The notes under the pieces: model-generated
What the model saw: the letters and a program-made list of their open reading frames with translations, nothing else
Told to the model about the DNA's origin: nothing
Database searches by the model: none
DNA from: Ferrovibrio sp.
GTDB taxonomy: Bacteria > Pseudomonadota > Alphaproteobacteria > Ferrovibrionales > Ferrovibrionaceae
Reading direction: 5' to 3'
Length of the DNA: 64,000 nucleotides
Assembly: GCF_041906005.1 (NCBI RefSeq)
Contig: NZ_JAYRJY010000003.1
Coordinates: 3,724-67,723 of the forward strand
Position numbers and translations under genes: made by a program
Part shown: in pieces, positions 8,233-36,094 of the stretch
Layout: each line of letters opens with the position of its first letter
How positions within the stretch are numbered: the first letter of the stretch is position 1

Positions 8233-8254
8233 CCGCTCTACTACGAGCAAAGTC

Positions 8255-9675: not shown

Positions 9676-9711
9676 GGCCAGCGCCGACACTGAGGGCCGC
9701 CGGCAATCAAG

Positions 9712-9767
9712 GCTGTCAAGATTAACAGCCTAAATGTCAAGACCGGGTGGTAGGGGCGCCCTATCGT
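9712..9767 (+). promoter_or_regulatory. AraC-type tandem site plus -10 element for the ABC/SDR operon
   Basis: TGTCAA 9714-9719, TGTCAA 9735-9740 and TATCGT 9762-9767. Confidence 0.7.
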
Positions 9768-9928
9768 CCCTAGCGTGACCGACTTTAAGACGACTTGCGG
9801 CAAGCAAGCGACAGAATGAGCACACCACATTCGATGGAGTCCGGCCGGGTTTTGCGGACCGGTGCTCCAGCTTGGTCAACAGGGAAGCGGCACCGGCAAC
9901 AATCGACCGGGCCAACGGAGAGGGACAG

Positions 9929-11092
9929 ATGAGCAGCTTCAAGCAGTCACGTCGCAACTTCATGCAGAATTCGGCCCTGATGGCCGCGGCCTTTGCCACC
10001 AGCGGCGTAGCGGGCCTGCGCTCGGCCTATGCCGATCGCTCCAAGGAACTCAATATCCTGTGTTGGGAAGGCTATAACTCGGCGCAAGTCTTGGATCCAT
10101 TCCGCGAATCCAACGGCGCCACGGTGAAGGCGGAATCGCTCACCAACGACCCCACCATGATCAACCGCCTGCGTGCCGGCGAAACCAATGTCTGGGACCT
10201 GATCAACGTCAACAATCCCTGGGCACGCAAGATCATGTTTCCGGAGAAGCTGATCCAGCCGCTCGACCGGGCCAAAATGGAACCCTATTTCGAGAAGATG
10301 GCCCCCGCCTTCAAGCCGCCCTATGCGTGGGCCATGGACGAAAGTGGCAGCCAGCTCATCGGCATGGCACAGCGCTACGGTCCCTACAGCTTCGTCGTCA
10401 ACACCGACAAAGTGAGCCGCGCCACCGCCGAGGATCAGGGCTGGGATCTGTGGAACGACGCGGGCAATGCCGGCAAGTACGGCGTGCTTGAATCCGATGA
10501 TTGGAACGTCTTCAACCTGTGCTGCATCGCCGGCTTCGATCCCTTCAAGGAGCATACGCCGGAGGAAATCGCCAAGTTCACGGAAACCGCCAAGCGCGTC
10601 TTCAAGGGCGCCAAGGTGGTGGGCGACATCGCGACCATGAACCAGGCCCTTGTCTCGGGCGAGATCGATTTCCACATGACCGGCGGTACCTACTCCGCCT
10701 CGCCAGCCCGCGCCGATGGCGCCGGCAATATCCGCGCCATCACGCCGAAAAAGGGGCCGCTCGCTGGCGGCAAGGGCGGCATTTCCTGGATCGAGATCAC
10801 CTCGGTGGTCAACAATCCAGACGTCTCGCCGCTTGCCGTGCAGTTCCTGGAATATGTCCAAGACCCGAAAGTCGCCCATACGGTCGCTTTCGCCGAGGGC
10901 ACGTTCAACCCGGTGGCCCAGATGGGCAATCCGGATTGCTTCAGTCTCTTCACCAAGGAAGAACTCGATGCGATCCAGTATGACAGCCTGGAAGAGGAAA
11001 TGGCGCGTTCGGTCGAATACGACATTGTGCCGGACTACGACAAGCTGCTCGACATCATGACCGCTGCCAAGCGCGAAGCTTCGGGCGGCTGA
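9929..11092 (+). CDS. PotD/PotF-family ABC substrate-binding protein with Tat signal
   Basis: SRRNFM twin-arginine motif, AYA cleavage site, LNILCWEGY and YGPYSFVVNTD; SD GGAGAGGG before ATG 9929. Confidence 0.85.
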   Translation: MSSFKQSRRNFMQNSALMAAAFATSGVAGLRSAYADRSKELNILCWEGYNSAQVLDPFRESNGATVKAESLTNDPTMINRLRAGETNVWDLINVNNPWARKIMFPEKLIQPLDRAKMEPYFEKMAPAFKPPYAWAMDESGSQLIGMAQRYGPYSFVVNTDKVSRATAEDQGWDLWNDAGNAGKYGVLESDDWNVFNLCCIAGFDPFKEHTPEEIAKFTETAKRVFKGAKVVGDIATMNQALVSGEIDFHMTGGTYSASPARADGAGNIRAITPKKGPLAGGKGGISWIEITSVVNNPDVSPLAVQFLEYVQDPKVAHTVAFAEGTFNPVAQMGNPDCFSLFTKEELDAIQYDSLEEEMARSVEYDIVPDYDKLLDIMTAAKREASGG

Positions 11093-11119
11093 TCAATCGG
11101 CTGCTGCCACCACGACGTC

Positions 11120-11151
11120 GGATCGCCCGGTGCGTAGATGCCGGGCGATCC
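11120..11151 (+). terminator. Stem-loop after the SBP gene (terminator or mRNA-stabilising hairpin)
   Basis: GGATCGCCCGG / CCGGGCGATCC, 11-bp perfect stem. Confidence 0.6.
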
Positions 11152-11198
11152 CGTCTTGATCCCCCTCCATTTCATCACGATCCGGATTCCCAAGGACC

Positions 11199-12266
11199 AT
11201 GAACGGCCGATCGCCCATTCTGCAATTGCGCAATCTGACCAAGACCTTCGGCAACTTCACGGCCGTCAAAGGAATCAGCCTCGACATCTCCGAGGGCGAA
11301 TTCTTCACCATCGTCGGCCCGTCGGGCAGCGGCAAGACAACCTTGCTGCGCATGCTGACGGGCATGGAAAGCGCCACGGGCGGCGACATCTTGCTGCGAG
11401 GCGCCCGCATCAACGATCTGCCCGCCAACAAGCGGCCGACCTGCATGGTGTTCCAGTCGCTGGCCCTCTTCCCACATCGTACCGTCGGGCAGAACATCGA
11501 ATTTTCCCAGAAGATCAAGGGCGTGGCACCCGATAAGCGCAAGACGCGGGCCCTGCAGCTGATGGCGCAGCTGCGCTTGCCGGAAAACTACTACGACAAG
11601 AGTGTCACCAAATGCTCTGGCGGCGAGAGGCAGCGCGTGGCGCTCGCCCGGGCGCTGGCCTATGACCCGGACATCCTGTTCTTCGACGAGCCGTTGTCGG
11701 CCATCGATTACAAGCTGCGGAAAACACTGGAAAAAGAACTCAAGGACATTCACCGCGAAACCGGCAAGACCTTCATCTACATCACCCACAGCCTGGAAGA
11801 GGCGATGGTGATGAGCGACCGCATCGGCGTCATGCGCACGGGGCAATTGGTCCAGGTCGGTTCGCCACAGCAGATCTACAGCGCGCCGGAAACCAAGTTC
11901 GTCTCCGAATTCATCGGGGATGTGAACGTCATGGCCGTAACAGCAAACGGTGCCAGCGGCGTCCATGCTGCGGAGTTCGACGTGGATTTCGTGAGCCAGA
12001 CTGTGCCGGCGGGCTTCACCAATGGGCATCTGGTGGTGCGTCCGGAATCGTTGCGCTTCCTGAGCCATCGGGCCGAGGCGCAGAACTGCCTGGAAGGTCG
12101 CCTCTATAATGAATATGTGCTGGGTTCGCGCATCCAATACCAGGTGCGCGTGGGCGAGCATGTCTTCATCGTCGAAAAACTGCGCCAGCAGCAATTCGGC
12201 GGCAAGCTCGACGACCAGGTCCTCATCGGCTGGGATGCCAAGGACGGCATCCTGGTAACGGATTGA
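11199..12266 (+). CDS. PotA-type ABC ATPase
   Basis: GPSGSGKTT, CSGGERQRVALARA, LFFDEP and TOBE-like C-terminus. Confidence 0.92.
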   Translation: MNGRSPILQLRNLTKTFGNFTAVKGISLDISEGEFFTIVGPSGSGKTTLLRMLTGMESATGGDILLRGARINDLPANKRPTCMVFQSLALFPHRTVGQNIEFSQKIKGVAPDKRKTRALQLMAQLRLPENYYDKSVTKCSGGERQRVALARALAYDPDILFFDEPLSAIDYKLRKTLEKELKDIHRETGKTFIYITHSLEEAMVMSDRIGVMRTGQLVQVGSPQQIYSAPETKFVSEFIGDVNVMAVTANGASGVHAAEFDVDFVSQTVPAGFTNGHLVVRPESLRFLSHRAEAQNCLEGRLYNEYVLGSRIQYQVRVGEHVFIVEKLRQQQFGGKLDDQVLIGWDAKDGILVTD

Positions 12267-12279
12267 GCGGGGCCTCGCC

Positions 12280-13134
12280 ATGACCCTGCTCAAGATTTTC
12301 GGACCGGGTACGCGACATGCTCTGCCGCTGATCCTCTTCCTGCTTATCGGCTTTGCCGCGCCCCTGGCGGCCGTCATCGGCTTCAGTTTCACGCCGGCAC
12401 GAACCTTCTCGATCTGGCAAAGCTGGAGCCTCGACAATTATATCGAGATATTCAATTCGACGAGCTATCTCTCCTTCCTTTGGTCGCTGGGCCTCGCCGC
12501 TGTCACGGTACTGATCCTGGCCCTCATCTGCTATCCGATCGCCTATGGCCTGGCGCGCGTCTTCGGCAAATATTCGACGCTGGTGACGCTGCTCTTCACC
12601 ATTCCGCTGTTCGTCTCGGAAAATGTCCGTCTCTACGGCTGGGTCCTGTTCTTTATCAAGAACGGCGTGCTGCTGGGCACGCTCAAGGCTTGGTTCGGCA
12701 TCGAACCGGATAGCTGGCTTTTCACCAGCGGCATCATCGTTTTCGGCATGGTCTATGTCTATCTGCCGTTCATGCTGTTCCCGATGACGCTCGGCGTCTC
12801 GATGGTGCCGGACCAGACGCGGGACGCCGCCTTCGATCTGGGCGCTACGCGCTGGCAGGTGTTCAAAGAGGTGGAACTGCCGCTTTCCATGCCGGGCATC
12901 ATGATCGGCTTCCTGCTGTCCTTCGTGCTGGCGGTGGGCGCCATCGCCGAAGCCAAGGTACTGGGCGGGCAGCAAATCATACCGATCAGCCATGATATCG
13001 AGATCGCCTTCACCTATGCGCAGAACTGGCCGCTGGGCGCCGCCCTTGCCGTGCTGCTGATGCTGGTGGTGGGCAGCATGGTGCTGTTCGTGCTGCGCCG
13101 CTTCGATCTCGATGCCATTCTGGGGCGGAGATAG
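12280..13134 (+). CDS. PotB-type ABC permease
   Basis: Hydrophobic helices; YVYLPFM and DAAFDLGATRWQVF EAA-loop. Confidence 0.9.
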   Translation: MTLLKIFGPGTRHALPLILFLLIGFAAPLAAVIGFSFTPARTFSIWQSWSLDNYIEIFNSTSYLSFLWSLGLAAVTVLILALICYPIAYGLARVFGKYSTLVTLLFTIPLFVSENVRLYGWVLFFIKNGVLLGTLKAWFGIEPDSWLFTSGIIVFGMVYVYLPFMLFPMTLGVSMVPDQTRDAAFDLGATRWQVFKEVELPLSMPGIMIGFLLSFVLAVGAIAEAKVLGGQQIIPISHDIEIAFTYAQNWPLGAALAVLLMLVVGSMVLFVLRRFDLDAILGRR

Positions 13135-13137
13135 GCG

Positions 13138-13956
13138 ATGGATGGTCTTACCCCCCGCTGGCGGACGTCGCTGATCTGGGCCTGGACGGCGGCGATCGTC
13201 GTCTTCATGTATCTGCCGGGGCTCTGCCTGTTGCTCGCCTCCCTTACATCAAGCCGCTATTTCATCTTCCCCATCAACAAATGGGGTGTCGCTTGGTGGC
13301 AGAAGACTTTCGACTCGCTGGAAATTCATCAGCTTTTCAAGACCTCGATCTCGATTGCGCTGTGCGTCACGGTGATTGCCGTCGTGATCGCGCTCTTCGG
13401 GGCGCTGGCCTTTGCGCGCTATGACTGGAAGGGCCGGTCGATCTATCAGAAAATCGTGTTGCTGCCGATCTTCTTCCCGCAATCGGTCTTGGGGCTGGCG
13501 CTGCTGCTCTGGTTCAACGCCTTGGGCCTCACCATGTCGTGGCAGACGGCGGTCTTTGCGCATCTCGTCTGGATCATCCCCGTCTGCACGCTGGTCATCT
13601 CGATTCAGGTCTATTCCTTCGATCCGGCCTTGGAAGAAGCGGCTTTCGATCTCGGCGCCACGCGCTGGCAGGTGTTCCGCGAAGTGACCTTGCCGGTGCT
13701 GTTCCCCGGCATCTTCTCGGGTGCCCTCTTCGCGTTCCTTCTGAGTTGGGGCAATTTCCCGCTGTCGCTTTACACGACCGGCGCCGACACAACGATTCCG
13801 GAATATCTCTACGCGAAGATGGTTGCCGGCTATACCCCGGGCGTGCCGGTGCTCGGTACCGTTTCGACCTTCGGTGCGGCGACCCTGCTGCTCGCCGGCT
13901 ATGCCATCATCCTGATCCTGCGCCGGCGCCGCGCCAGCGCGCCGTCCGAGACCTGA
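13138..13956 (+). CDS. PotC-type ABC permease
   Basis: EEAAFDLGATRWQVFREVTLP and TIPEYLY. Confidence 0.9.
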   Translation: MDGLTPRWRTSLIWAWTAAIVVFMYLPGLCLLLASLTSSRYFIFPINKWGVAWWQKTFDSLEIHQLFKTSISIALCVTVIAVVIALFGALAFARYDWKGRSIYQKIVLLPIFFPQSVLGLALLLWFNALGLTMSWQTAVFAHLVWIIPVCTLVISIQVYSFDPALEEAAFDLGATRWQVFREVTLPVLFPGIFSGALFAFLLSWGNFPLSLYTTGADTTIPEYLYAKMVAGYTPGVPVLGTVSTFGAATLLLAGYAIILILRRRRASAPSET

Positions 13957-13978
13957 GAGAAAGCGGAGGAAACACGCC

Positions 13979-14761
13979 ATGTTGGGGCAATCAATCCAGG
14001 GGAAATCCGTCATCGTCACCGGCGCCAGCAAGGGCATCGGCAAGGGCATCGCCCGCGTCTTCGCGCGCCACGGTGCCAAGGTGCTGGTGGTGGGACGCGA
14101 CCTCAAATCGGCGGAAGCAACGGCGAAGGATTTCGTCGATTCCGGCTGGACGGCAAGTGGCTTTTCCGCCGACGTTACCAAGCTTGCCGACATGGAGAAG
14201 ATGGCCAAGACAGCAGCGGATCGTTACGGCGGCGTCGATGTGCTCTGCGCCAATGCCGGCGTTTTCCCGCAGGTGAAGATCGAGGATATGTCCCCGGAGA
14301 CCTGGGATGAGGTGCAGGCAACCAATCTCAAGGGCACGTTTCTTTCCGTGAAGGCCTGTATCCCCTACCTCAAGAAATCGGGCGAGGGACGCATCGTCAT
14401 CACCTCTTCTATCACCGGGCCGGTCACCGGCTTTCCCGGCTGGACCCATTACGGCGCTACCAAGGCCGGGCAATTGGGCTTCATGCGCACGGCCTGCATG
14501 GAAGTCGCCAAATATGGGATCACGGTCAATGCCGTGCTGCCGGGCAATGTGATGACCGAAGGCCTCATCGAGCTTGGCGAGGATTATGTGAAGGGCATGG
14601 CCGCGGCCGTGCCGATGGGCAAGCTTGGCAATGTCGAGGATATCGGCCATGCCGCCCTCTTCCTCGCCTCGCGCGAGGCCGGCTACATCACCGGGCAAAC
14701 GATCATCGTCGATGGCGGCCAGATCCTGCCCGAGAGCCAGGACGCGCTGTCGCAGATGTAA
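13979..14761 (+). CDS. SDR oxidoreductase, amino-alcohol (1-amino-2-propanol/aminoacetone) dehydrogenase-like
   Basis: TGASKGIG, NAG and YGATK. The SSITGP-TG-PGW-HYG, VLPGN-TEGL and DGGQILPES segments match my recollection of the RMM aminopropanol dehydrogenase. Confidence 0.75.
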   Translation: MLGQSIQGKSVIVTGASKGIGKGIARVFARHGAKVLVVGRDLKSAEATAKDFVDSGWTASGFSADVTKLADMEKMAKTAADRYGGVDVLCANAGVFPQVKIEDMSPETWDEVQATNLKGTFLSVKACIPYLKKSGEGRIVITSSITGPVTGFPGWTHYGATKAGQLGFMRTACMEVAKYGITVNAVLPGNVMTEGLIELGEDYVKGMAAAVPMGKLGNVEDIGHAALFLASREAGYITGQTIIVDGGQILPESQDALSQM

Positions 14762-14764
14762 AGG

Positions 14765-15832
14765 TCAGTGCCCCTGCTTCCGATAGGCGCGCGGGCTGAC
14801 ACCCGTCCAGCGGGTGAAGGCGCGGGTGAAGGCGGAGAGCTCCGAATAGCCGAGCAGCAGGGCGATCTCGGTCAGCGGTAGCTGGCGCTGATCGAGATAC
14901 ATCTGGGCAAGGCTCTGCCGTGTCGTTTCGACCGCATCCTTATAGGTGAGCCCCTGTTCAGCGAGTTCCCGCTGCACCACAGCGGCCGGCACGCGCAGGG
15001 AATGAGCGATCTGATCGAGGCTGGGGTAGCCGCCGGGCAGGCTCACGCGGATCGCCGTCTTGACCCGGTCGACCATACCGTCGGTCCCCTGCCGATGCGA
15101 ACCCAGAGATTCGAGGCAGGTCTGCATCATGGTCAGAAGCTGCAAATCGCGGCCCGGCATCGACCGCTCGAGGAGTTCGGGACGGAACAGCAGCGCATTG
15201 GTCGGCTGGCTGAAATAGACCGGCGCATCGAAGGCCGCCTCGTGCTCCTTCCAGAATTCCGGGCGCGGATGCTCGAAATGCACCTCGACCGGCGTCCATT
15301 TCGACCCGCAGCAATCGCGGATGACATTGGCGAACATGCCGAGCGAGAGTTCCGCATCCTGCCGGCGCTCGACGATTTCCGAGGAAAAGATCTGGTATTC
15401 GAGCCGCATCAGCCCGTCGGTGCCCTTCACCAGCTGCATCCCTGAGGATTCCTGGTGGTAGTGGAAAAGCCGCACCAGATTTTCGAGAGCCGCCCCCAGA
15501 TTTGGGGATGAGATCGCTGCATAGCCCCACATGCCGAGGTCGCGCGGCTGGAATTGCTGGCCGAAATGCAGACCGAAATTGCCCGGGCTGAACTTGTCGC
15601 CCTGGATCTGCTTGGCCGCTTGCTCGAAGAGGCGGCAATAAGAAGCGAGTTTTAGTTTCAGGGTGGGCGATCCGGCCATATCCGGTGCAATGCCGGAATT
15701 GCCGAAGATCGAATCCACATCACCGCGCTGACGCTCGATGAAGTCCACCAAGCCGGTGGCAGCCGCGGCAAGGACGATCGGTGCCCCGCTTTCGCGCGTC
15801 TCGGTCTTGTGATCCAGCAAAGCGGCAGCCAT
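14765..15832 (-). CDS. AraC family activator 2, paralog of 3847-4905
   Basis: Same C-terminal signature and shared GQQF-PRDLGMWGYA and RRQDAELSLG blocks; start moved to ATG 15832. Confidence 0.9.
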   Translation of the reverse strand: MAAALLDHKTETRESGAPIVLAAAATGLVDFIERQRGDVDSIFGNSGIAPDMAGSPTLKLKLASYCRLFEQAAKQIQGDKFSPGNFGLHFGQQFQPRDLGMWGYAAISSPNLGAALENLVRLFHYHQESSGMQLVKGTDGLMRLEYQIFSSEIVERRQDAELSLGMFANVIRDCCGSKWTPVEVHFEHPRPEFWKEHEAAFDAPVYFSQPTNALLFRPELLERSMPGRDLQLLTMMQTCLESLGSHRQGTDGMVDRVKTAIRVSLPGGYPSLDQIAHSLRVPAAVVQRELAEQGLTYKDAVETTRQSLAQMYLDQRQLPLTEIALLLGYSELSAFTRAFTRWTGVSPRAYRKQGH

Positions 15833-15877
15833 CGGAAATCCCCGGCTAAACGTCACGCACCAGACTGTGGATGCTTG

Positions 15878-15907
15878 ATGATGGCATGGCGCATGGCGCG
15901 GCTTCAA
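15878..15907 (-). promoter_or_regulatory. Putative sigma70 promoter of AraC2
   Basis: Minus strand TTGAAG-N18-CATCAT, same block as at 4949. Confidence 0.4.
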
Positions 15908-15924
15908 GGGTGCAAAGCTGATCA

Positions 15925-15981
15925 GCTGTCAAGATCGCCCCGTCACGGGTCAAGCGAGGCTTGGCGCCCGCACCCTAGCCT
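15925..15981 (+). promoter_or_regulatory. AraC-type tandem site plus -10 element for the microcompartment operon
   Basis: TGTCAA 15927-15932, GGTCAA 15948-15953 and TAGCCT 15976-15981. Confidence 0.7.
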
Positions 15982-16085
15982 GCACTTGGATGGAAATGCG
16001 CCTGCCGCCGTCAAGCGGCATGCCCGGACTTTAGTTAACGATCCTGGGTGAAGAGCCTGACCACCATCTGGGAGCAGGGAAATAA

Positions 16086-17084
16086 ATGAGCGGCATGCTC
16101 ACGACAGAACAATTGTTGCGCGCGATCGATGAGCTGGCTGCTGCCGCCTTGCCCCGCTGGGGGTTGGCTGGCGCCGAGCTGAAGCTGATCAATCATTCGG
16201 AAAATTGGACCTATCGCGTGACGCCCCGGGGCACCGCGCGTCCGGTCATCCTGCGCGTGCATCGGGAAGGCTATCACAGCGTCGACGGCATCCGCAGCGA
16301 GCTTGCCTGGATGCGCGCCCTGCAATCGCAAGCGGGTGTGAAGACGCCACAGGCCATTCCCGGCACCGACGGCGCCGATATCCAGACCGTGGCGCATCCG
16401 GCCCTCGCCACGCCGCGCAATTGCGTGCTGTTCGAATTCATCGACGGGACCGAGCCGCCGCAGGACAATCTCATTCCGCCTTTCCGTCAATTGGGCGAGG
16501 TAACGGCGCGCTGCCACAATCACAGCGAAACCTGGACGCGCCCCCCCTATTTCGAGCGCCTTTCCTGGGACTTTGAACATTCCCTGGGGAAGACCGCCAA
16601 TTGGGGTGCCTGGCAGGACGGGCCGGATTGCACGCCGGACCGCGCCCGGCTGTTGCAGCGCGCGGTCGATCTGATGGAGAAGCGGCTGACGGCTTTCGGA
16701 CAGGCCCGGAACCGTTACGGCCTCATCCATGCCGATTTCCGCCTCGCCAACCTGCTTGTTCACAATGGCGATGTGCGCGTCATCGATTTCGACGATTGCG
16801 GCCTCGGCTGGTTTCTCTATGACGCAGCAAGCGCGGTGAGTTTCTTCGAGGACCGCGCCGATGTGCCGGAACTGATGGAAGCCTGGAAGGAAGGCTATCG
16901 CCGCCAGCGCGCGCTGCCGAAGACGGACGATGACGAATTGTGGACCTTCATCCTGCTGCGTCGCATGACGCTCTTTGCCTGGATGGGGAGCCATGCCGAA
17001 ACGGATCTCGCCCGCACCGAGGGCCCCGGTTACAGCACCGGCACCTGCGAACTCGCTGAACGTTATCTGAGCCAATACAGCTGA
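16086..17084 (+). CDS. APH/choline-kinase-fold phosphotransferase, aminopropanol kinase-like
   Basis: SENWTY, ILRVHR, HADFRLANLL (HxDxxxxN) and VIDFDD; microcompartment context. Confidence 0.8.
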   Translation: MSGMLTTEQLLRAIDELAAAALPRWGLAGAELKLINHSENWTYRVTPRGTARPVILRVHREGYHSVDGIRSELAWMRALQSQAGVKTPQAIPGTDGADIQTVAHPALATPRNCVLFEFIDGTEPPQDNLIPPFRQLGEVTARCHNHSETWTRPPYFERLSWDFEHSLGKTANWGAWQDGPDCTPDRARLLQRAVDLMEKRLTAFGQARNRYGLIHADFRLANLLVHNGDVRVIDFDDCGLGWFLYDAASAVSFFEDRADVPELMEAWKEGYRRQRALPKTDDDELWTFILLRRMTLFAWMGSHAETDLARTEGPGYSTGTCELAERYLSQYS

Positions 17085-17108
17085 ACCCCGACGGGTCAGG
17101 AGTTACCG

Positions 17109-18398
17109 ATGGTCGATTACCCAGAGAGTCCCGAGAAGCGCGAGTTCATCGCCAAGTCGAAGCAATTCTGGAATCCAGGCAAGACCCAGGCTTGGCAGGA
17201 TATGGGCGTCGATCTGGTGATCGATCGGCGTGAGGGCTACCTGCTCTGGGACATGGATGGGCGGCGTCTTATTGATCTCCATCTCAACGGTGGCACCTAC
17301 AATATCGGTCATCGGCATCCGGAACTGATCGAGGTGCTCAATCGCGGCATGCAGCGCTTCGACATGGGCAATCACCACTTCCCAAATATGGGCCGCACGG
17401 CCTTGGCCGAGCGGCTGGCGCGCATCTGCGGCGGCGACATGCACTATACCATGTATGCCTCAGGCGGCGCCGAAGCCATCGACATCGCCCTCAAGACCGC
17501 GCGCCACGCCACACAGCGGCGCAAGATCGTCTCGATCATCAATGCCTATCATGGCCATACCGGCCTCGCCGTCGCCGCCGGCGCTGATCGCTTCAAGAAG
17601 ATCTTTCTGTCCGACCAGCCGGAAGATTTCGTGCATGTGCCTTTCAACGATCTCAACGCGATGGAAGATGCGCTGAAAGGCAAAGACGTCGCCTGCCTCA
17701 TCATGGAGACGATTCCCGCGACCTACGGCTTTCCGATGCCGCTGCCCGGCTACCTCACGGAAGTGAAGAAGTTGTGCGAGCGTTATGGCGCACTCTATGT
17801 CGCGGATGAAGTGCAGACGGGCCTGATGCGCTGCGGCGAAATGTGGGGCTATCAGCGCTATGGCATCCAGCCGGACATCATGGTGACCGGCAAGGGCATT
17901 TCCGGCGGTATGTATCCGATCGCCTGCGTCGTGGTGCGCGAGCCCTATGCCGGCTGGCTGAAACAGGACGGTTTTGCCCATATGTCGACCATGGGCGGCG
18001 CCGAGCTCGGCTGCCTGGTTGCCATGAAGACGCTAGAAATCCTCGAACGTCCGATGGTGAAGCCGATGGTCAACTATATCTCCGAGACGTTCCGCAACGG
18101 TCTTCACGAGATCATGCGGCTTTATCCCAGCTTCTTCGTGGGCTTGCGCCAATGTGGCGTCGTCATGGGGCTGGAATTCGATTTCCCCGAGGGCGCCAAA
18201 CCGGTGATGAAGCATCTCTATGAAAACGGCGTCTGGGCGATCTTCTCGACGCTCGATCCGCGCGTGCTGCAATTCAAGCCCGGTGTGTTGATGACCGCCG
18301 ATCTCTGCGCCGAGGTGCTGGAGCGGGTCGAACGCAGCATCGGTCTCGCCTATGCCGAATGCATGGGCAAAGGTCGCAGCGCCCATCGGGCCGCCTGA
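17109..18398 (+). CDS. Class III PLP-dependent enzyme, probably an amino-alcohol O-phosphate phospho-lyase (or aminotransferase)
   Basis: SGGAEA, YHGHT, ADEVQTG and PLP lysine in VTGKGISGG; adjacent to the kinase. Confidence 0.8.
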   Translation: MVDYPESPEKREFIAKSKQFWNPGKTQAWQDMGVDLVIDRREGYLLWDMDGRRLIDLHLNGGTYNIGHRHPELIEVLNRGMQRFDMGNHHFPNMGRTALAERLARICGGDMHYTMYASGGAEAIDIALKTARHATQRRKIVSIINAYHGHTGLAVAAGADRFKKIFLSDQPEDFVHVPFNDLNAMEDALKGKDVACLIMETIPATYGFPMPLPGYLTEVKKLCERYGALYVADEVQTGLMRCGEMWGYQRYGIQPDIMVTGKGISGGMYPIACVVVREPYAGWLKQDGFAHMSTMGGAELGCLVAMKTLEILERPMVKPMVNYISETFRNGLHEIMRLYPSFFVGLRQCGVVMGLEFDFPEGAKPVMKHLYENGVWAIFSTLDPRVLQFKPGVLMTADLCAEVLERVERSIGLAYAECMGKGRSAHRAA

Positions 18399-18411
18399 GG
18401 AGCGCCGCGAT

Positions 18412-20007
18412 ATGACTGCCATCATTGAAGAAATCCTCGCCGGCGACAAACGCGCCACCGGTACCGCCGACCTCATGCTGCAAATGGCGGAATGGGCCGC
18501 GGCGGCCTTTGCGCGCTTCGACCGAGCAAAGGTCGAAAAGATCGCCCGCGCCGCCGCCGATGTCGCCTATGCCCATGCCGGGGAACTCGCCGAAGCGGCG
18601 GTCAAGGAAACCGGCTTCGGTGTCGCCGCCCATAAGAAGATCAAGAACGAACTGACCTCACGCGGTCTTTTCGAGCTCTATTCGAAAGAGGATTTTTGTT
18701 CGGCCAAGATCGATCCTGCGCTGAAGATGGTCGAACTGCCCAAGCCGGCCGGCGTCATTTTCGCCCTGACGCCCTCGACCAACCCGGTCTGCAGCGTCTA
18801 TTACAAGGTGCTGATGGCGCTCTTCACCCGCAACGCCATCATCCTGTCGCCGCACCCGATGGCAAAGGGCTGTTCGGTGAAGGCTGCCAAACTGATGGCC
18901 GAAGCCGCAGAACAGGCCGGTGCACCCACCGGCATCATCCAGATCATCGAGCAGCCAAATCTGCCGCTGATTGACTATGTGATGAAAAGCCCGCGCGTCG
19001 GCGTCATCCTGGCGACCGGCGGCACACCCATGGTGCGCTCGGCCTATAGTTCCGGCAATCCGGCGATCGGCGTCGGTCCCGGCAATGCGCCGGTCCTGGT
19101 TGACGACAGCGCCGACCTCAATGAAGTGGCCAAGCGTATCGTCATGTCGAAGGCATTCGACAATTCGATCCTCTGTACGAATGAAAGCGTCGTCGTTGCG
19201 ATCGATAGCATCGCCGACCGGCTGCTGCAATCCTTGAAATCGGCGAGCGCCTATATCGCGAAGCCCGAGGAAGTCGTGGCCTTGCGCGACTTGCTGTTCG
19301 GCCTGGGCTCGTTCAACACGGCCGTCCTGGGCAAGTCTGCGGTCGAAATCGGCGCGCAGGCTGGCATTCGCCTACCTTCGAATACGCAGATCATTGTCGC
19401 CGAAATCGACCGCGTCGGGATCGACGAGCCGCTTTCCAAGGAAAAGCTCTGCCCTGTGCTGGGCTTCTTGCGAGTGCCGCATGCCGATGCCGGCATTACC
19501 CAGGCCCGCGCGCTCATCCGCCTGTCAGGTGCCGGTCATTCCGCTGCCATCCACAGCCGCCATGCACCGACCATCCTGAAATATGGCGCGGCGGTGAAGG
19601 CTTTGCGCGTCGCCGTCAACGCGCCATGCAGCCTGGGTGCCGCCGGCTATGGCACGCATCTGGCACCGGCCTTCACCATCGGCACCGGCTTCTTCGGGTC
19701 CTCCTCGATCGGCGAGAATGTGGGACCGCAACACCTCATCAACTGGACACGGATCGCCTATAACGACGATCCCAAGGAAGTGTTCGGCGATTTCAGCGGA
19801 CTCGACGCCAATGCCGGCGGCCCCGCTCTGGCACTGGGTCTGGAGGCGCCGATTTCACTGGGTCGCCTGCAGGAAGGGGCCGATGCGGCGCAGGATCCCC
19901 TGCCCTTGCCTCTTTCCAACAGTGGATCGACCGACGAGGTCGCCATCTTGCGCGAAGAAATCCGGCGCATGGTCCTTGAAGAACTGCGCGGGGCGCTCCG
20001 GTCATGA
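18412..20007 (+). CDS. CoA-acylating aldehyde dehydrogenase (EutE/PduP family) with C-terminal encapsulation peptide
   Basis: TPSTNP, ATGG, AYSSGNPAIGVGPGN, FDNSILC (catalytic Cys) and EKLCPVL; tail DEVAILREEIRRMVLEELRG; ATG 18412 with SD GAGGAG. Confidence 0.9.
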   Translation: MTAIIEEILAGDKRATGTADLMLQMAEWAAAAFARFDRAKVEKIARAAADVAYAHAGELAEAAVKETGFGVAAHKKIKNELTSRGLFELYSKEDFCSAKIDPALKMVELPKPAGVIFALTPSTNPVCSVYYKVLMALFTRNAIILSPHPMAKGCSVKAAKLMAEAAEQAGAPTGIIQIIEQPNLPLIDYVMKSPRVGVILATGGTPMVRSAYSSGNPAIGVGPGNAPVLVDDSADLNEVAKRIVMSKAFDNSILCTNESVVVAIDSIADRLLQSLKSASAYIAKPEEVVALRDLLFGLGSFNTAVLGKSAVEIGAQAGIRLPSNTQIIVAEIDRVGIDEPLSKEKLCPVLGFLRVPHADAGITQARALIRLSGAGHSAAIHSRHAPTILKYGAAVKALRVAVNAPCSLGAAGYGTHLAPAFTIGTGFFGSSSIGENVGPQHLINWTRIAYNDDPKEVFGDFSGLDANAGGPALALGLEAPISLGRLQEGADAAQDPLPLPLSNSGSTDEVAILREEIRRMVLEELRGALRS

Positions 20008-20025
20008 GAAGGCAGCACTGATATC

Positions 20026-20625
20026 ATGGCCGATCTGCGCTCCTTCATCTTCATCGACCAGCTGCAGCCGCAGACGCTCTGCTATATGGCGAGCGGCATG
20101 CGCGGGCGCTTGCCACGCACCCATATGGCCGCCCAGATCATCGAAGTGGCCCCCGGGCTCGATATCGAGGCGCTGACCGATACCGCCCTCAAGCATGCCG
20201 AGGTGAGCGGTGGCATGCTGGTGGTGGAACGCCAGTTCGGCTATCTCGAATTCCATTCCCGTTCGACGGCCGCCGTCAAGTCGGCCGCCGAGGCTGTGCT
20301 GGATGAGCTCGAGGCACGAACCGAACAGGCGATGAAACCGCAGATTCTCGCTTCCAAGATCGTGACCCGGATCGATAATGGCCACGCTTTCCTCATCAAC
20401 CGCAACAAATCGGGTTCGATGATCCTGCCCGGCGAATCGCTCTTCGTCCTCGAGATGCAGCCCGCCTCCTATGCCATCCTGGCCACCAATGAGGCGGAAA
20501 AAACGGCGGATATCAAAGTGATCGACTATCGCATGTTCGGCGCCACCGGCCGGGTCTACCTCTCCGGTGAAGAATCCAATGTGCGCATGGGCGCTGAAGC
20601 GGCCTTGGCCGCCTTGCAAGGATGA
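20026..20625 (+). CDS. BMC-T shell protein (permuted tandem, double-stacking type)
   Basis: [31 protein letters not shown] and [10 protein letters not shown]. Confidence 0.88.
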
Positions 20626-21044
20626 GCCAGATGGATAAGAGCCTCATCCGCAACCTGATCCGAGAAGTCATCGCCGAGGAAGTGAAGGCGATGAAGTCGG
20701 GTAAGTCGCCCGCCGCCACACCTTCCTCGGTGCGCATTGCTGGGGATGCCGATCTCGCGACTTTTGCCAAGGACGTCTTGCGCCTCGCTGACGATCCGCA
20801 GGTGCGCACTGCCATTCTGGCCGGGCGGCATCCGTTCCATCTGGCAAGCTCTGCTGCGCCAACGACGGCTGCGCCGTCCGGGCAAAGTCATCGCGTCGAC
20901 AAGGGCGTCGTTACGGAAGGCGCCATCGCCAAGCTCGGCAAGAATGTCTCGCGCCTGCTGCTGGGGCCGGGCGTCAGTATCACCCCCTTGGCCCGCGACA
21001 AGGCCAAGGCGCGCAACATCAGCGTCGAAAGGATCGGGCAATGA
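20622..21044 (+). CDS. BMC-associated hypothetical protein with N-terminal encapsulation peptide
   Basis: N-terminal DKSLIRNLIREVIAEEV amphipathic helix; C-terminal VVTEGAI...ITPLARDKAKARNISV module seen in BMC loci; ATGA-coupled on both sides. Confidence 0.75.
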   Translation: MSQMDKSLIRNLIREVIAEEVKAMKSGKSPAATPSSVRIAGDADLATFAKDVLRLADDPQVRTAILAGRHPFHLASSAAPTTAAPSGQSHRVDKGVVTEGAIAKLGKNVSRLLLGPGVSITPLARDKAKARNISVERIGQ

Positions 21045-21298
21045 TTCGCGGTCGGGTCGTGGGCCGATATTGGGCCACCAAGAAAATCGAGCACATCCCC
21101 TCGGGGGCGTTCCTGGAAGTGGAAAGCCCCGGCGGCGGGCGCATGATCGCCTTTGACGTGCTGGGCTGCGGCGAGGGCGAGGATGTCCTCATCGTCACCG
21201 GTTCCACCGCCGCCTCCTGGCTGGGCGGCGGCAAGATACCCATAGACGCACTCATCATCGGCTCGCTCGACGAGACGTCGAAATCCAAATCGAAATAG
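21041..21298 (+). CDS. BMC-P pentameric vertex protein (EutN/CcmL family)
   Basis: [22 protein letters not shown] and PIDALIIG. Confidence 0.92.
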
Positions 21299-21327
21299 CC
21301 AACACTGTTGAAAGCAAGGAGAGAACC

Positions 21328-21609
21328 ATGTCGAACGCTATCGGAATGATCGAGACCAAGGGTTTCGTCGCGGCCCTGGCCGCGGCCGATGCCATGGTCA
21401 AAGCCGCCAATGTCACGGTGGTCGGCCGCGAAGAAGTGGGTGACGGCCTCGTTGCCGTCATCATTAATGGCGATGTCGGTGCCGTGAAGGCAGCGACTGA
21501 AGCCGGTGCCGAAGCAGCGAGCAGCGTCGGTACGCTGGTCTCCGTCCACGTCATCCCGCGCCCGCATCCCGACCTTGGCAAGCATTTCTCGACCGCCAGC
21601 GGGAAGTAA
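21328..21609 (+). CDS. BMC-H hexameric shell protein
   Basis: [29 protein letters not shown] and HVIPRPH; SD AGGAG. Confidence 0.97.
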
Positions 21610-21628
21610 CTGATCGACGCAAGCTTGA

Positions 21629-21661
21629 CCGTCATGCCCCGACTGAGTGCGGGCATGACGG
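21629..21661 (+). repeat. REP-like GC-rich hairpin between BMC-H and the last BMC-T gene
   Basis: CCGTCATGCCC / GGGCATGACGG, 11-bp stem with no U-tract. Confidence 0.75.
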
Positions 21662-21703
21662 CAGATGTGTTGACGTTGCTCTAACGCCTTCCGGAATCAA
21701 TTT

Positions 21704-22339
21704 ATGACCGAGCTTCGCGTCTATCTGCTGGTGAAAGACCTGGCCCGCCAGTTCGCGGCATATATGTCGACGCCCACGCGGGCGCGCGGCTATCCGCCGA
21801 TGCAGGGCGAGCATAGCTTGATCATCGAGGTGGCGCCGGCTTTGGCCATTCACCGGATCTGCGATCTGGCACTAAAGACCGCGCCGGACATGGAGCCGGG
21901 CTTGCTCTATACCGAGCGGCAATACGGCATCCTGGAGCTGCATGCGGCGGATCTCGCGCATCTCAACTTCGCCGGCGAGGCGATCCTCAAAGGCATCGGC
22001 CACAAGCCCGAAGACCAGTTGAAACCCCGGACACTCTACGCCGACATCATTGACGATGTGTCGGACCAGCATGCGATCATCCTCAATCGCACGCGCGAGG
22101 CATCGATGCTGCTGCCGGGCAAATCTCTGCTGCTCTATGAGTTGGAGCCGGCGCTCTTTGCCTCGGTCGCTGCCAATGAGGCGGAGAAGGTCGCGCCCGG
22201 CATCACCCTCGTTGACGTGCAGATGATCGGCGCCAGCGGGAGATTGTTCCTTTCCGGTACACGCAAGGAATGCGAACGCGCCCGCGATCGCATCGATGAG
22301 GTGCTGGGTGCCGTGATCGGGCGGTCGGGGAAGGCGTAG
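21704..22339 (+). CDS. BMC-T shell protein (double-stacking type)
   Basis: RARGYPP, IIEVAPA, ERQYG, ANEAEK and GASGRLFLSG. Confidence 0.88.
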   Translation: MTELRVYLLVKDLARQFAAYMSTPTRARGYPPMQGEHSLIIEVAPALAIHRICDLALKTAPDMEPGLLYTERQYGILELHAADLAHLNFAGEAILKGIGHKPEDQLKPRTLYADIIDDVSDQHAIILNRTREASMLLPGKSLLLYELEPALFASVAANEAEKVAPGITLVDVQMIGASGRLFLSGTRKECERARDRIDEVLGAVIGRSGKA

Positions 22340-24977: not shown

Positions 24978-25099
24978 TGAGTTGAAACCTCGTATCTATC
25001 GTGACGCGCGCAAGCGCAGGGCAGCATAGGCGAAAAATGGTGCTGCACGTTCAAAAAACCGCCGGAATCGGCCGTGCGACACCGAATCGGTGACGGTCT

Positions 25100-25765
25100 T
25101 CACAGGATCACCCCTTCCTGATGAGCCAGCGCCGCTTCGATTTCCCGCCAGTCGGGTGAAAACTCGACCTTTGCCGGTGCATGGACATTCTCGGTCCAGG
25201 CGTAAAGGCACAGCAACGGCATGTCGCGCACCAAGGTTGCGTGAACACGGTGCGGCGGGTTCCAGACGGTCTCGCCCGGCATCTTCTCAGCCCACGGAGC
25301 CGTGGTGCCGAACCGCCAATAGGTCGGACCCGTTAAGGGCACATAGAGTTCCGACGCCAGATGGTGATGATCGCGGTAGAGCGTGCCCGGGGCGATGAGC
25401 AGGAAGCCGATATCGAAGTCACGGGCCCAATCCGGATCGGCCGCCGCGATCAGGCTGGTATAGGCGTGGCGGCGGGGGAAGAGCGTTCCGATCGTATCCG
25501 CCGCATAGGCGTTATAGCTGATCCAATGAAGGTCGATGTTGCCCAGAGCCTGCGCCAGTTCTGCCGCCGGTCCGATAACAGCCGCCGCCAGAGCTTCCTT
25601 GTAAGATCCGCATGTGGGCGACGCAGGTGGTATGGTCGCCGGCAATCTGCGCAGGTCCGCCATTTCGCCCAAGCGCATGCGTGTCCGTGCAACGCCGCCA
25701 TCGGCATCCGCTAAACCGCCGAGAAATCGGTCAATTTCATGCCACAGCAAGTCCAACCCATGCAT
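25100..25765 (-). CDS. Cupin, DMSP lyase (DddQ/DddL)-like family
   Basis: YRDHHHLASELY (HxHxxxExY) and WNPPHRVHAT...PLLCLYAW cupin motifs. Confidence 0.7.
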   Translation of the reverse strand: MHGLDLLWHEIDRFLGGLADADGGVARTRMRLGEMADLRRLPATIPPASPTCGSYKEALAAAVIGPAAELAQALGNIDLHWISYNAYAADTIGTLFPRRHAYTSLIAAADPDWARDFDIGFLLIAPGTLYRDHHHLASELYVPLTGPTYWRFGTTAPWAEKMPGETVWNPPHRVHATLVRDMPLLCLYAWTENVHAPAKVEFSPDWREIEAALAHQEGVIL

Positions 25766-25839
25766 GCCGCCCGCCCCATTCTATGCGGGCGAGACTATAG
25801 CGCATTCCACCGGCTGGCCAATGCCCTACCCCCGCCGGC

Positions 25840-26913
25840 TCAAGCGAGCAGAATGCCGTCGGCATAAATGCGCATCTTTTCCGGCGCCACCTTCAGCCAG
25901 ACCTTGCCCACCGGCAAATCGACATCCCGACCGACCTTCATGCTGGCGGTCGATTTTCCAACACGCAGGAGGACGACCCGATTGCTGCCATGGTCGCGCA
26001 CGGCGACGATTTCGGCCGGGAACTGCCCGGTCTCGGCGGCATCAGCCAATTGGATATGCTCTGGTCGCAGCCCCAATTGCAGCTTGCAGCCCGCCGCCTG
26101 GCGCTGGGCCTCGATCAGGCTCGGCACCGCCGGCAAGGCAAGCCCGCTGACGGAAAGGCGACCCGCCACATTCTCAATTTCCAGGAAATTCATCGCCGGA
26201 GAGCCGATGAAATAGCCGACATAGGCCGTGCGCGGCCGTTCGAACAGTTCGTCTGGCGTGCCACGCTGGACGACCGCACCATCCTTCATCACCAGAACTT
26301 CATGAGCAAAGGTCATGGCCTCGTTCTGGTCATGGGTGACATAGATGACCGTCAGCCTCGCCTGCTCGATGATCGATTTTATCTTGCGCCTGAGGGCAAA
26401 TTTGCTCTGCGGATCGATCACCGTCAACGGTTCGTCCATCAGCAAAGCTGCGACATCATCGCGAACCAGCCCGCGTCCCAGCGAAATAAGCTGCTTCTGA
26501 TCGGCGGTGAGGTTATTGGCGCGCTTACCGAGCGTGGCGGTCAGGCCCAGCAGTTCGGCAATCTCGCCTACCCGCGCGCGGATCCGGTCGGATGCCCAAC
26601 CCCGGCAAACCAGGGGAAAGGCCAGATTCTCGGCAACACTCTTGGCGCTATAGATGACTGGAAACTGGAAGACCTGGGCGATATTGCGCGCAGCAGTTTC
26701 CGTGCGCGTAACGTCGCGACCGTCAATCAGGACCCGACCGTCGCTGGGCTTGAGAAGCCCAGAGATGATGTTGAGCATGGTCGTCTTGCCGCAACCGGAT
26801 GGTCCCAACAGCGCATAGGTCCGGCCATGCTCGAAAATCATGTCGAGGGGCGCCAGCGCATAGTTGCGCAAGGCATAGCGGTGCCCGATGCCGGCCAGAG
26901 AGATTTCAGCCAT
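25840..26913 (-). CDS. ABC ATPase (GlpT-like)
   Basis: GPSGCGKTT, degenerate signature LTADQKQ, and LMDEP. Confidence 0.88.
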   Translation of the reverse strand: MAEISLAGIGHRYALRNYALAPLDMIFEHGRTYALLGPSGCGKTTMLNIISGLLKPSDGRVLIDGRDVTRTETAARNIAQVFQFPVIYSAKSVAENLAFPLVCRGWASDRIRARVGEIAELLGLTATLGKRANNLTADQKQLISLGRGLVRDDVAALLMDEPLTVIDPQSKFALRRKIKSIIEQARLTVIYVTHDQNEAMTFAHEVLVMKDGAVVQRGTPDELFERPRTAYVGYFIGSPAMNFLEIENVAGRLSVSGLALPAVPSLIEAQRQAAGCKLQLGLRPEHIQLADAAETGQFPAEIVAVRDHGSNRVVLLRVGKSTASMKVGRDVDLPVGKVWLKVAPEKMRIYADGILLA

Positions 26914-27994
26914 GATGTCCTCCTGGCACGCCTGTCAGCAACTTCCCGTCTGCAGAGAAGAGGAGCAGACGCTCCGGCGCGAAACCGACCCGCAAGCCGG
27001 CGCCCAGGGTCAAGTCGTGAATGCCCGCCATCTGGACGGCGAGTTCCCCAAAAGCGCTGTCGACATAGAGAAATGTCTCAGAGCCGGAAATTTCCGAGAA
27101 GGCAAGGCTGGCCCCGACACCCCCTTCCGAAACCAGATAGACATCTTGCGCGCGGATGCCGAGTTTATAAACGCCGTCGCTAAGGCCACCCATATGCGTC
27201 GGCAGGGGCAGGGCGAATTCGGTTCCAAGCCACAGCCGGCCCTGCCGGACCACGGCCGGAACGATGTTCATCGGCGGATCGTCGACAATGCGTGCGACGT
27301 CAACCGTGGCTGGTCTTTCGTAGATCTCATGCGGGGCGCCGATCTGGAGGACCCGTCCCTCATGCATGACAACGACCTGATCGCCAAGCATCATCGCTTC
27401 GGCAGGTTCGGTGGTCGCATAGACGATGATGGCATCCTGCTGGTCGGCGAACAGGCTGCGGAAATCCTCGCGTAACTGTTCGCGCAGCTTGTAGTCGAGG
27501 TTGGCCAGCGGCTCATCAAGGAGCAGGACATTGCTGCGGCGGACCAGCGCGCGGGCAAGCGCCACCCGTTGCTGCTGGCCGCCCGACATCTGCGACGGTC
27601 GCCGCTCGCTGAAATCGCTGAGGCCGACGCGCTCCAGCGCCGCCGCCACCCGTGACCGGATTTCTCCTGTCGCCACACCCTTGCGACGCAGGGGGAATGC
27701 CACGTTGTCGAAAACGGTGAGGTGCGGATAGTTGATGAATTGCTGGTAGACCATGGCCACATCGCGTTGCCAGACAGGCAGCTTGTCGATCGACTTTGCG
27801 TCAAGCTCAATGTGGCCCCGATCAGGCATTTGCAGCCCGGCCAGGCTGCGCAACAAAGTGGTCTTGCCGGCGAGTGTCCGCCCCAGGATCGTGGTCAGAC
27901 GACCGCGCGGAAAGCTGGTGGAGATCCCGCCCAGAAAAGTGACGTTATCCTGGATAACGGTGAGATCAGTGATCTTCAGCGACATGCGAGCCAA
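26906..27994 (-). CDS. ABC ATPase (GlpS-like)
   Basis: Deviant Walker A GRTLAGKTT, MSGGQQQR, and switch His replaced (YATTE). Confidence 0.85.
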   Translation of the reverse strand: MARMSLKITDLTVIQDNVTFLGGISTSFPRGRLTTILGRTLAGKTTLLRSLAGLQMPDRGHIELDAKSIDKLPVWQRDVAMVYQQFINYPHLTVFDNVAFPLRRKGVATGEIRSRVAAALERVGLSDFSERRPSQMSGGQQQRVALARALVRRSNVLLLDEPLANLDYKLREQLREDFRSLFADQQDAIIVYATTEPAEAMMLGDQVVVMHEGRVLQIGAPHEIYERPATVDVARIVDDPPMNIVPAVVRQGRLWLGTEFALPLPTHMGGLSDGVYKLGIRAQDVYLVSEGGVGASLAFSEISGSETFLYVDSAFGELAVQMAGIHDLTLGAGLRVGFAPERLLLFSADGKLLTGVPGGHHG

Positions 27995-27997
27995 CCT

Positions 27998-28840
27998 TCA
28001 GCGAATGGCGCCGGCAAGACTGCCGTGGGACAGGAAGCGTTCAACCAGGAAGGCGATAAGTACCAGTGGCGCCACCGAGATGAGGGCCGATGCCGAAAGA
28101 CTCCACCACGGTGTCACTGAGGAATTGAGCGCCACCACCGCAACGGGGAGAATCTGCGTATCCGTGAAGGTCAGCGTGAAGGCGAAGAAGAAATCGTTCC
28201 AGCCGAAGATGATGCAGAACATGCCAGCGACGACCAGGCCCGGAATGCTGTTGGGCAGAATGACGCGGAAGAAAGCGCCGAAGGGCGTGCAGCCGTCGAG
28301 CATCGCCATTTCGTCGATGGCGCGCGGGATATTGTTGAAGAAATCGATCAACACCCAGACGGCGATCGGTAGCAACAAGGCGATATAGACGATGATGAGG
28401 CCAAGCTTGGAATCGAGCAGGCCCAGGAATTGCAGCATCAGGAAGAAGGGAATTGCCAGCACGATGGGCGGCATGATGCGCTGAGAGATGAAGAAGAAGG
28501 TCAAGTCGGCATTGCGCACGAAGCCCCAGCGATACTGGAAACGCGACAGGCCATAAGCCGCGAAAGTGCCGAGGACAAGGCTGATGACACTGGCGCCCAG
28601 AGTCACGACGACGCTGTCCCAATAGGGGTCGACGATGTCGATGCCGCCAGCGCCGCCGAAAAGATTGCGCCAGCCTTCCGTTGATGGCTCGAATTGCATC
28701 CAGGGTATATAGGTGGGACCGCCGGTGACGCCATTGGCCGTCTTGAAACTGGTGCTGAGCGCCCAAAAGAACGGCGCCACCACGAAGGCCGACCAGGCGA
28801 AGATAGCTGTGTATTTAATCAGGCGATAGAGCATCGGCAT
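27998..28840 (-). CDS. Carbohydrate (CUT1) ABC permease
   Basis: DEMAMLDGC EAA-loop; true start ATG 28840 (TAATG overlap). The track ORF is N-terminally extended. Confidence 0.88.
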   Translation of the reverse strand: MPMLYRLIKYTAIFAWSAFVVAPFFWALSTSFKTANGVTGGPTYIPWMQFEPSTEGWRNLFGGAGGIDIVDPYWDSVVVTLGASVISLVLGTFAAYGLSRFQYRWGFVRNADLTFFFISQRIMPPIVLAIPFFLMLQFLGLLDSKLGLIIVYIALLLPIAVWVLIDFFNNIPRAIDEMAMLDGCTPFGAFFRVILPNSIPGLVVAGMFCIIFGWNDFFFAFTLTFTDTQILPVAVVALNSSVTPWWSLSASALISVAPLVLIAFLVERFLSHGSLAGAIR

Positions 28841-29721: not shown

Positions 29722-29747
29722 AGAGGGAACCTTGTCAGGAAAAGTAT

Positions 29748-29775: not shown

Positions 29776-29781
29776 GAGACA

Positions 29782-36085: not shown

Positions 36086-36094
36086 GCCGGTATC

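Follow-up and report, generated by a model that had tools for sequence, protein, structure and literature searches.

The window analysed here (64,000 nucleotides; positions 3724-67723 of the 82.3-kb contig NZ_JAYRJY010000003.1, below called C12, of the Ferrovibrio sp. assembly GCF_041906005.1) was found to carry a bacterial microcompartment (BMC) locus, which we assign, with a probability of about 75%, to the RMM1/AAUM type ('Rhodococcus and Mycobacterium' organelle) as a metabolosome that would act on aminoacetone and small amino alcohols. Support for the RMM assignment is sequence-based: six of the encoded proteins, including a short-chain dehydrogenase/reductase (SDR) encoded upstream, had a Mycobacterium smegmatis RMM/AAUM protein as their best, or best natural, solved-structure match by a wide margin. 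The original prediction, made from the DNA letters alone, had described eight genes at 16086-22339, and all eight were present in the order and on the strand that it gave, closely spaced or overlapping among the open reading frames of the window; six of them received a family from Pfam. They are listed with the SDR gene.

13979-14761, plus strand: SDR (PDB 3PK0, 3RIH, 6CI8 and 6CI9 at 1e-89 to 5e-92)
16086-17084, plus strand: APH-family kinase (Pfam APH, E = 1.7e-27; PDB 6EF6)
17109-18398, plus strand: class-III pyridoxal phosphate (PLP) enzyme (Pfam Aminotran_3, 6e-73)
18412-20007 (open reading frame 18352-20007), plus strand: AdhE-type CoA-acylating aldehyde dehydrogenase (ALDH), 531 aa (Pfam Aldedh; PDB AdhE/acetylating ALDH, 1e-95; NCBIfam)
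20026-20625, plus strand: BMC-Tdp 1 (T1), MSM0275 orthologue (Pfam BMC; PDB 5L39, 6e-86)
20622-21044, plus strand: conserved 140-aa protein, no Pfam family
21041-21298, plus strand: BMC-P pentamer, MSM0273 orthologue (Pfam EutN_CcmL, 3e-17; PDB 5L37)
21328-21609, plus strand: BMC-H hexamer, MSM0272 orthologue (Pfam BMC, 2e-27; PDB 5L38)
21704-22339, plus strand: BMC-Tdp 2 (T2), MSM0271 orthologue, permuted (PDB 5SUH, 1e-88; PF27545, precomputed on homologues)

Position 18412 is most likely the true start of the ALDH gene, and not 18352, because a GAGGAG motif lies 9 nt upstream of it and a 47-nt overlap with the PLP gene is avoided.

Orthology and shell composition

Proteins were compared with solved structures in the PDB. 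The kinase matched 6EF6, the M. smegmatis (S)-1-amino-2-propanol kinase, at 7e-85 over residues 18-330 (next match, 1e-18), and the SDR matched 6CI8/6CI9, the M. smegmatis (S)-1-amino-2-propanol dehydrogenase, at about 1e-89 (next unrelated match, a generic FabG-type SDR, 4e-53). BMC-H matched 5L38 at 3e-41 (PduA/EutM next, at about 1e-30) and BMC-P matched 5L37 at 3e-26 (next, 4e-6). T1 and T2 were both assigned by their PDB matches to the double-stacking Tdp types; T2 gave no match in the copy of Pfam-A that was searched. The shell proteins were closest to those of RMM and did not cluster with EUT or PDU types, in agreement with the RMM-type shell first proposed. When the whole assembly was searched with PF00936, only BMC-H and T1 were matched and no second hexamer gene was found, hence the single hexamer gene of the original prediction holds genome-wide. 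The shell set comprises one BMC-H, one BMC-P and two different BMC-Tdp proteins, as in RMM1/AAUM1.

Comparison with the RMM1/AAUM1 locus of M. smegmatis MC2 155 (Axen 2014; Mallette & Kimber 2017, 2018; Sutter 2021) yielded an identical list of parts, paired one-to-one by best match, and the SDR, kinase, PLP enzyme, acylating ALDH, Tdp, small protein, P, H and Tdp were shown by sequence comparison to form a one-to-one orthologous set with that system. The core order PLP-ALDH-T-hyp-P-H-T (hyp, the small conserved protein) is the same in both, with the small protein between T1 and P, and neither has a phosphotransacylase (PTAC) or an alcohol dehydrogenase. A 6.5-Mb actinobacterial genome (locus L089) carries the gene set at 37-80% identity in the order PLP-ALDH-T1-hyp-P-H-T2-kinase-SDR, which confirmed the core order as that of actinobacterial RMM. 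The rearrangements noted in the original prediction were likewise correct: the kinase heads the operon in the window, whereas it follows T2 in L089 and in M. smegmatis, and the SDR gene belongs to another operon, where it follows the genes of a PotABCD-like ABC transporter that takes the place of the M. smegmatis amino-acid permease. As had also been predicted, no APC permease was found in the locus and no GntR gene in the locus proper; a GntR gene at 3140-3850 sits outside the conserved block. QhpR-like AraC regulators stand where RMM1, as described by Axen 2014, has GntR; these are ancillary genes and not part of the defining core. Unlike M. smegmatis RMM1, the block lacks alpha/beta-hydrolase genes and has a co-regulated B12 dehydratase operon upstream.

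Proposed pathway

In the pathway proposed, the amine would be imported by the PotABCD-like transporter, and the SDR would interconvert aminoacetone and (S)-1-amino-2-propanol. The kinase, probably cytosolic, would convert aminopropanol to aminopropanol O-phosphate, from which the class-III PLP enzyme would eliminate phosphate and ammonia to give propionaldehyde. The aldehyde would be captured as propionyl-CoA by the shell-targeted acylating ALDH within a minimal shell of one H, one P and two gated double-stacking trimers. In the passage of PMC8156839 that cites Mallette & Kimber 2018, the organelle is proposed to turn aminoacetone into propionyl-CoA by way of propionaldehyde, using a kinase and a phospho-lyase. 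The original prediction had placed kinase, phospho-lyase and propionaldehyde formation together inside a minimal shell, and it agrees with this published proposal as to the enzymes and the aldehyde; nothing, as described below, places the kinase within the shell.

Phospho-lyase activity, predicted here for the PLP enzyme, is the key step. The lyase reading was favoured because the kinase and PLP enzyme are tightly co-conserved, being kept together in nearly all complete loci among the 80 described below, and because kinase/class-III fusion proteins exist. The kinase also matched NCBIfam PRK06149, a 972-residue family in which an APH kinase is joined to a class-III aminotransferase domain, and this natural fusion supports the presumed coupling of the two activities. 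The same logic is followed by amino-alcohol kinase/phospho-lyase pairs. In mammals, ETNPPL and PHYKPL act with kinases, the hydroxyl being phosphorylated before PLP-dependent elimination of phosphate and ammonia yields an aldehyde, and the aminopropanol pathway of Pseudomonas and Erwinia, studied by Jones, Faulkner and Turner in the 1970s, reportedly used a kinase and phospho-lyase pair. The PLP enzyme of the window differs from those of such pairs in being nearer to putrescine and ornithine transaminases than to ETNPPL-type lyases, and in being coupled to a protein shell.

Several points weigh against this assignment. No published phospho-lyase assay for any member of the family was found in the literature search. 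The nearest solved relatives of the PLP enzyme were putrescine and ornithine transaminases (1e-54) and argD was among its closest NCBIfam families; its nearest characterised relatives are true transaminases, and phospho-lyases of the ETNPPL type are more distant. The PLP enzyme has no visible targeting peptide. Neither a phosphotransacylase nor an alcohol dehydrogenase, by which CoA and NAD+ could be recycled in the shell, is encoded in the locus (Pfam gave neither family for any gene of 1-27000), and the co-regulated dehydratase variant may indicate a substrate range wider than, or different from, aminopropanol.

The transaminase relationships also bear on the idea, first suggested by Axen 2014, that the PLP enzyme is a genuine aminotransferase acting on aminoacetone to give methylglyoxal, in which case the shell would confine a toxic product until the ALDH acts and the role of the kinase would lie elsewhere. 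This was considered quite improbable: although the closest characterised families are transaminases, the orthologue of the aminopropanol kinase 6EF6 travels with the PLP enzyme, fusions of the two are found, and later literature, to judge from the same passage of PMC8156839, favours the propionyl-CoA route. The locus is a well-resolved member of its microcompartment type, with cultured carriers in Dongia, among them D. soli and D. mobilis.

Encapsulation-peptide-like helices and the 140-aa protein

The C-terminus of the ALDH consists of a Pro/Ala/Ser linker followed by an amphipathic helix (about 19933-20004), which together resemble an encapsulation peptide. The helix is of the type (D/E)ELRRLI(L/A)EELR, follows a variable linker and was kept across the complete loci of both phyla, Proteobacteria and Actinomycetota. 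A similar, encapsulation-peptide-like helix (about 20637-20696; LRxLIREVLAEE) was found at the N-terminus of the 140-aa protein, followed by a linker and middle segment and then by a C-terminal GVVTE...TPLARD...IER module. Helices of this type were conserved on these two proteins only; the kinase, PLP enzyme, SDR and dehydratase had none, and nothing places the kinase within the shell. The 140-aa protein may tether or organize cargo.

The C-terminal 45 residues of the 140-aa protein were weakly similar to PduM (PF15953), below the cut-off (best E of 1e-3; 15 of 49 members), and the protein scored 4e-4 against TIGR02536 (eut_hyp; 19.9 bits, cut-off 152.6), a resemblance to be taken as a lead only. 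It has about 600 representative relatives. The AlphaFold2 model, although confident (pLDDT 84.6), gave no match better than E 0.3 when compared with the PDB using Foldseek. No PF15953 member was found in 400 sampled genomes, and control genomes likewise gave none.

Extent and regulation of the locus

Three matches to the direct repeat TGTCAA-N16-GTCAAG were found in the window, where 0.19 were expected, and each copy precedes an operon (dehydratase, 5006; transporter, 9714; shell, 15927), with no copy elsewhere in the window. Expression is probably switched on by the QhpR-like AraC regulators acting through this common operator. At the other end, the conserved block stops exactly at the T2 stop codon: the alignment to a related locus (L001) ends at 22337, and the following gene, encoding a 2-oxo-tetronate isomerase, is unrelated to the block. 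Because the operator is common to three operons and the block ends at T2, the unit is 3847-22339, larger than the 16086-22339 of the original prediction, which had the genes right and covered only one of three co-regulated operons. The remaining features of the unit are as follows.

3847-4905, minus strand: AraC-family regulator 1 (AraC1; Pfam Arabinose_bd and HTH_18), paralogous to the regulator at 14765-15907 and oriented divergently from the dehydratase operon
5006-5033, plus strand: operator copy (direct repeat TGTCAA-N16-GTCAAG) upstream of the dehydratase operon
5111-7390, plus strand: B12 diol/glycerol dehydratase with fused large and medium subunits, 759 aa (Pfam Dehydratase_LU, 1.5e-208, and MU)
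7390-7815, plus strand: dehydratase small subunit, short form (NCBIfam NF011975, 6-139/139)
8201-8950, plus strand: isochorismatase-family cysteine hydrolase (Pfam Isochorismatase, 2.7e-34)
8947-9675, plus strand: stand-alone class-I glutamine-amidotransferase-like protein (Pfam GATase/Peptidase_C26; NCBIfam)
9714-9741, plus strand: operator copy upstream of the transporter operon
9872-13956, plus strand: PotABCD-like ABC transporter (Pfam; NCBIfam PotD/PotA/PotB/PotC-like), consisting of a binding protein (likely start at 9929, with a Tat-type signal), ATPase (11199-12266) and permeases (12280-13134 and 13138-13956)
14765-15907, minus strand: AraC-family regulator 2, QhpR-like, of the amine-responsive type (Pfam; NCBIfam QhpR, 300 bits, cut-off 250)
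15927-15954, plus strand: operator copy upstream of the microcompartment operon

The B12 dehydratase

Alignment to a solved glycerol dehydratase placed Asp310 and Ala345 of the dehydratase at Klebsiella oxytoca pocket positions S301 and Q336 (codons 310 and 345 lie at window 6038-6040 and 6143-6145). Asp and Ala occupied both positions in 13 of 13 RMM-linked dehydratases from Proteobacteria and Actinomycetota, including actinobacterial ones of 51% identity. Ser301 is in contact with the C3 substituent when glycerol is the substrate (PMC7674605). The pocket changes suggest a dedicated RMM-linked subfamily, possibly for an amino-substituted diol.

An organelle that is bifunctional or differently fed was weighed on this basis, with the dehydratase variant acting on an amino-substituted 1,2-diol or on 1,2-propanediol and its aldehyde passing also, or mainly, to the shell-bound ALDH; this is compatible with the aminopropanol pathway and is regarded as a tentative possibility. 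In addition to the conserved pocket and its contact with the C3 substituent, the dehydratase operon is preceded by the same type of operator as the transporter and shell operons. A dehydratase lies within 10 kb of the RMM core in 12 of 80 loci, in both phyla, and also near the core in D. soli and in a genome of another family (G1029, see below). A bifunctional RMM2 was raised by Axen 2014, and Paracoccus yeei, which carries an RMM2 locus, grows on 1,2-propanediol (PMC8156839). On the other hand, 68 of the 80 loci have no dehydratase within 10 kb, and the association was judged unimportant by Sutter 2021. Targeting segments of the PDU kind are also missing: no PduD-type N-terminal segment is present on the dehydratase, where the NCBIfam medium-subunit match begins at model position 29, and no PduE N-terminal extension on the small subunit, which long-form models match only from position 38-40. 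No reactivase gene or DDR family member was found in the assembly.

A fuller proposal, of an RMM-linked subfamily specialized for an amino-substituted diol such as 3-amino-1,2-propanediol, within a three-operon, two-entry amine system in which the 140-aa protein would be the cargo organizer, is offered with low confidence. If true, the three-operon regulon would represent two-entry amine catabolism, with reactive aldehydes from both entries directed to one minimal shell.

The system resembles PDU (Salmonella PduCDE) in its B12 diol-dehydratase homologue, likely propionaldehyde intermediate and acylating ALDH, and in the PduM-like C-terminal module of the 140-aa protein, with sub-threshold scores. 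It is unlike PDU in the absence of PduD/PduE targeting extensions from the dehydratase and in the changed pocket; PduL and PduQ are absent from the window, PduGH and PduO are missing as well, its shell proteins most resemble those of RMM, and PDU1 shells contain no Tdp proteins.

Distribution, gene order and phylogeny

A scan of one genome per species yielded at least 551 relatives of T2, of which the best 80 were taken as loci. These came mainly from Alphaproteobacteria, with some Gammaproteobacteria and six metagenome-assembled genomes (MAGs) of Actinomycetota. The order ALDH-T1-hyp-P-H-T2 was intact in every one of the 80 loci whose contig extended far enough, and the PLP gene directly preceded ALDH in most. 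Kinase, SDR and transporter were co-conserved with the core, the transporter-SDR-kinase module lying before or after the shell block, and the transporter adjoined the core in most proteobacterial loci. AraC regulator 2 was retained in the Dongia-like clade. The combination of ABC transporter, AraC regulators and kinase-first arrangement is typical of a soil alphaproteobacterial clade. In evenly drawn samples, the T2 type was found in 7 of 400 Alphaproteobacteria and 1 of 400 Actinomycetota (besides the centre genome), making the 'Rhodococcus and Mycobacterium' organelle at least as frequent in Alphaproteobacteria in present genome collections.

A tree was calculated from six concatenated proteins (1472 columns, 65 rows); it was unrooted, and sampling was biased to the 80 loci closest to the window. 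The window was sister to the locus of a Dongia sp. MAG (93% identity) within a 12-row clade. A 24-row split (SH-aLRT 100) united this clade with other alphaproteobacteria and an Actinomycetota clade, and a separate, well-supported 38-row marine clade contained the catalogued RMM2 examples Notoacmeibacter and Roseovarius. Because it groups with the actinobacterial clade and apart from the RMM2 clade, the locus is, by its phylogenetic placement, RMM1-like. The comparison with actinobacterial RMM called for in the original prediction as a check for transfer placed the window with the actinobacterial clade; actinobacterial sequences were nested among proteobacterial ones in this biased, unrooted sample, and no direction of transfer was drawn.

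RMM1/AAUM1 is listed by Sutter et al. 2021 (PMC8217296, Supplementary Data 2) in "various Actinobacteria and Proteobacteria", and RMM2/AAUM2 as 32 proteobacterial loci with a different gene order; in the tree-file labels of that study, Notoacmeibacter XMTR2A4 and Roseovarius nubinhibens are RMM2, and Polaromonas and Vibrio are RMM1. The locus is a further member of a type already catalogued in proteobacteria, and with most of the best 80 loci alphaproteobacterial, the actinobacterial order in a proteobacterium is not the oddity for which it was first taken. RMM2/AAUM2 loci, such as the two named, have the same gene families, core order and transporter-SDR-kinase module, and occasionally an isochorismatase-family gene and a B12 dehydratase, as in the window. 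Unlike the window, they have the module after T2 and no AraC regulator between modules. Heterologous assembly and studies of regulation could build on the invariant six-gene core, the pair of conserved targeting helices and the common operator.

About 18 of the 80 loci (L016, L023, L024, L027, L031, L032, L037, L039, L046, L048, L055, L061, L064, L066, L069, L073, L077 and L079) had an isochorismatase-family hydrolase gene beside the core, in many cases between the T2 and dehydratase genes; the enzyme may free an amine from an amide precursor. Two BMC-P matches, indicating a duplicated pentamer gene, were present in L072, and a second kinase/PLP pair on the opposite strand beside the core in L033 and L060. 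L068, from a MAG labelled Candidatus Cybelea (Vulcanimicrobiota), nests among alphaproteobacteria by its RMM locus; its RpoB is 78% identical to that of the window genome, with a Dongia-like match pattern. The bin is probably mislabelled or mixed, which makes 'Eremiobacterota' occurrences of RMM doubtful.

Host assignment

The RpoB of the assembly was 92-94% identical to those of its congeners and Ferrovibrio sp., and T2 was absent from 23 of 23 genomes of the same genus. In G1029, 62.8 kb of the 82.3-kb C12 was collinear at 90-95% nucleotide identity, ordinary flanking genes included, on a 1.4-Mb contig. T2 was found in three of three sampled genomes of the genus of G1029, at 90-98% identity, and the named relatives in that family are Dongia. 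C12 has a G+C content of 61.4% (main contig, 63.9%), its two chunks ranked 4th and 6th of 100 in tetranucleotide deviation, and no sequence common to C12 and the rest of the assembly was found. Two further contigs, C23 and C24, matched, in collinear order, adjacent parts of a second genome from the genus of G1029, and not the assembly's own genus. C12, C23 and C24 probably represent contamination of a Ferrovibrio-like assembly by a Dongia-like organism, to which the locus would be native.

A recent horizontal transfer from a Dongia-like donor into a Ferrovibrio-like host would fit the absence of T2 from the congeners and an RpoB only 78-81% identical to those of Dongia genomes, compared with 93% for the RMM core. 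It is nevertheless unlikely, contamination being the simpler account of the observations on all three contigs, and it was largely rejected on the collinearity of C12, C23 and C24 with the other family and on the atypical composition of C12. Because the contig is probably a contaminant, the lack of the locus in congeners does not count as evidence for transfer. What appeared to be a unique acquisition is most likely a mis-assigned contig, which calls for caution where transfer is claimed from the distribution of a locus among congeners. A search for island borders against five congeners gave scattered paralogue-level matches over window 1-40000 and no border.

Within the otherwise collinear region, a segment of about 9.5 kb (contig 28739-38288; window about 25016-34565) was missing from G1029; it contains ABC-transporter genes, a DMSP-lyase-like cupin, a sigma-54 activator and an 896-aa protein that was given no family. 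Conversely, an insertion of 5.8 kb lies between the GntR and AraC1 genes of G1029. Window 57676-59796 encodes a 706-aa protein in which Pfam identified a branched-chain-type ABC permease domain together with a strictosidine-synthase/SMP-30-like propeller.

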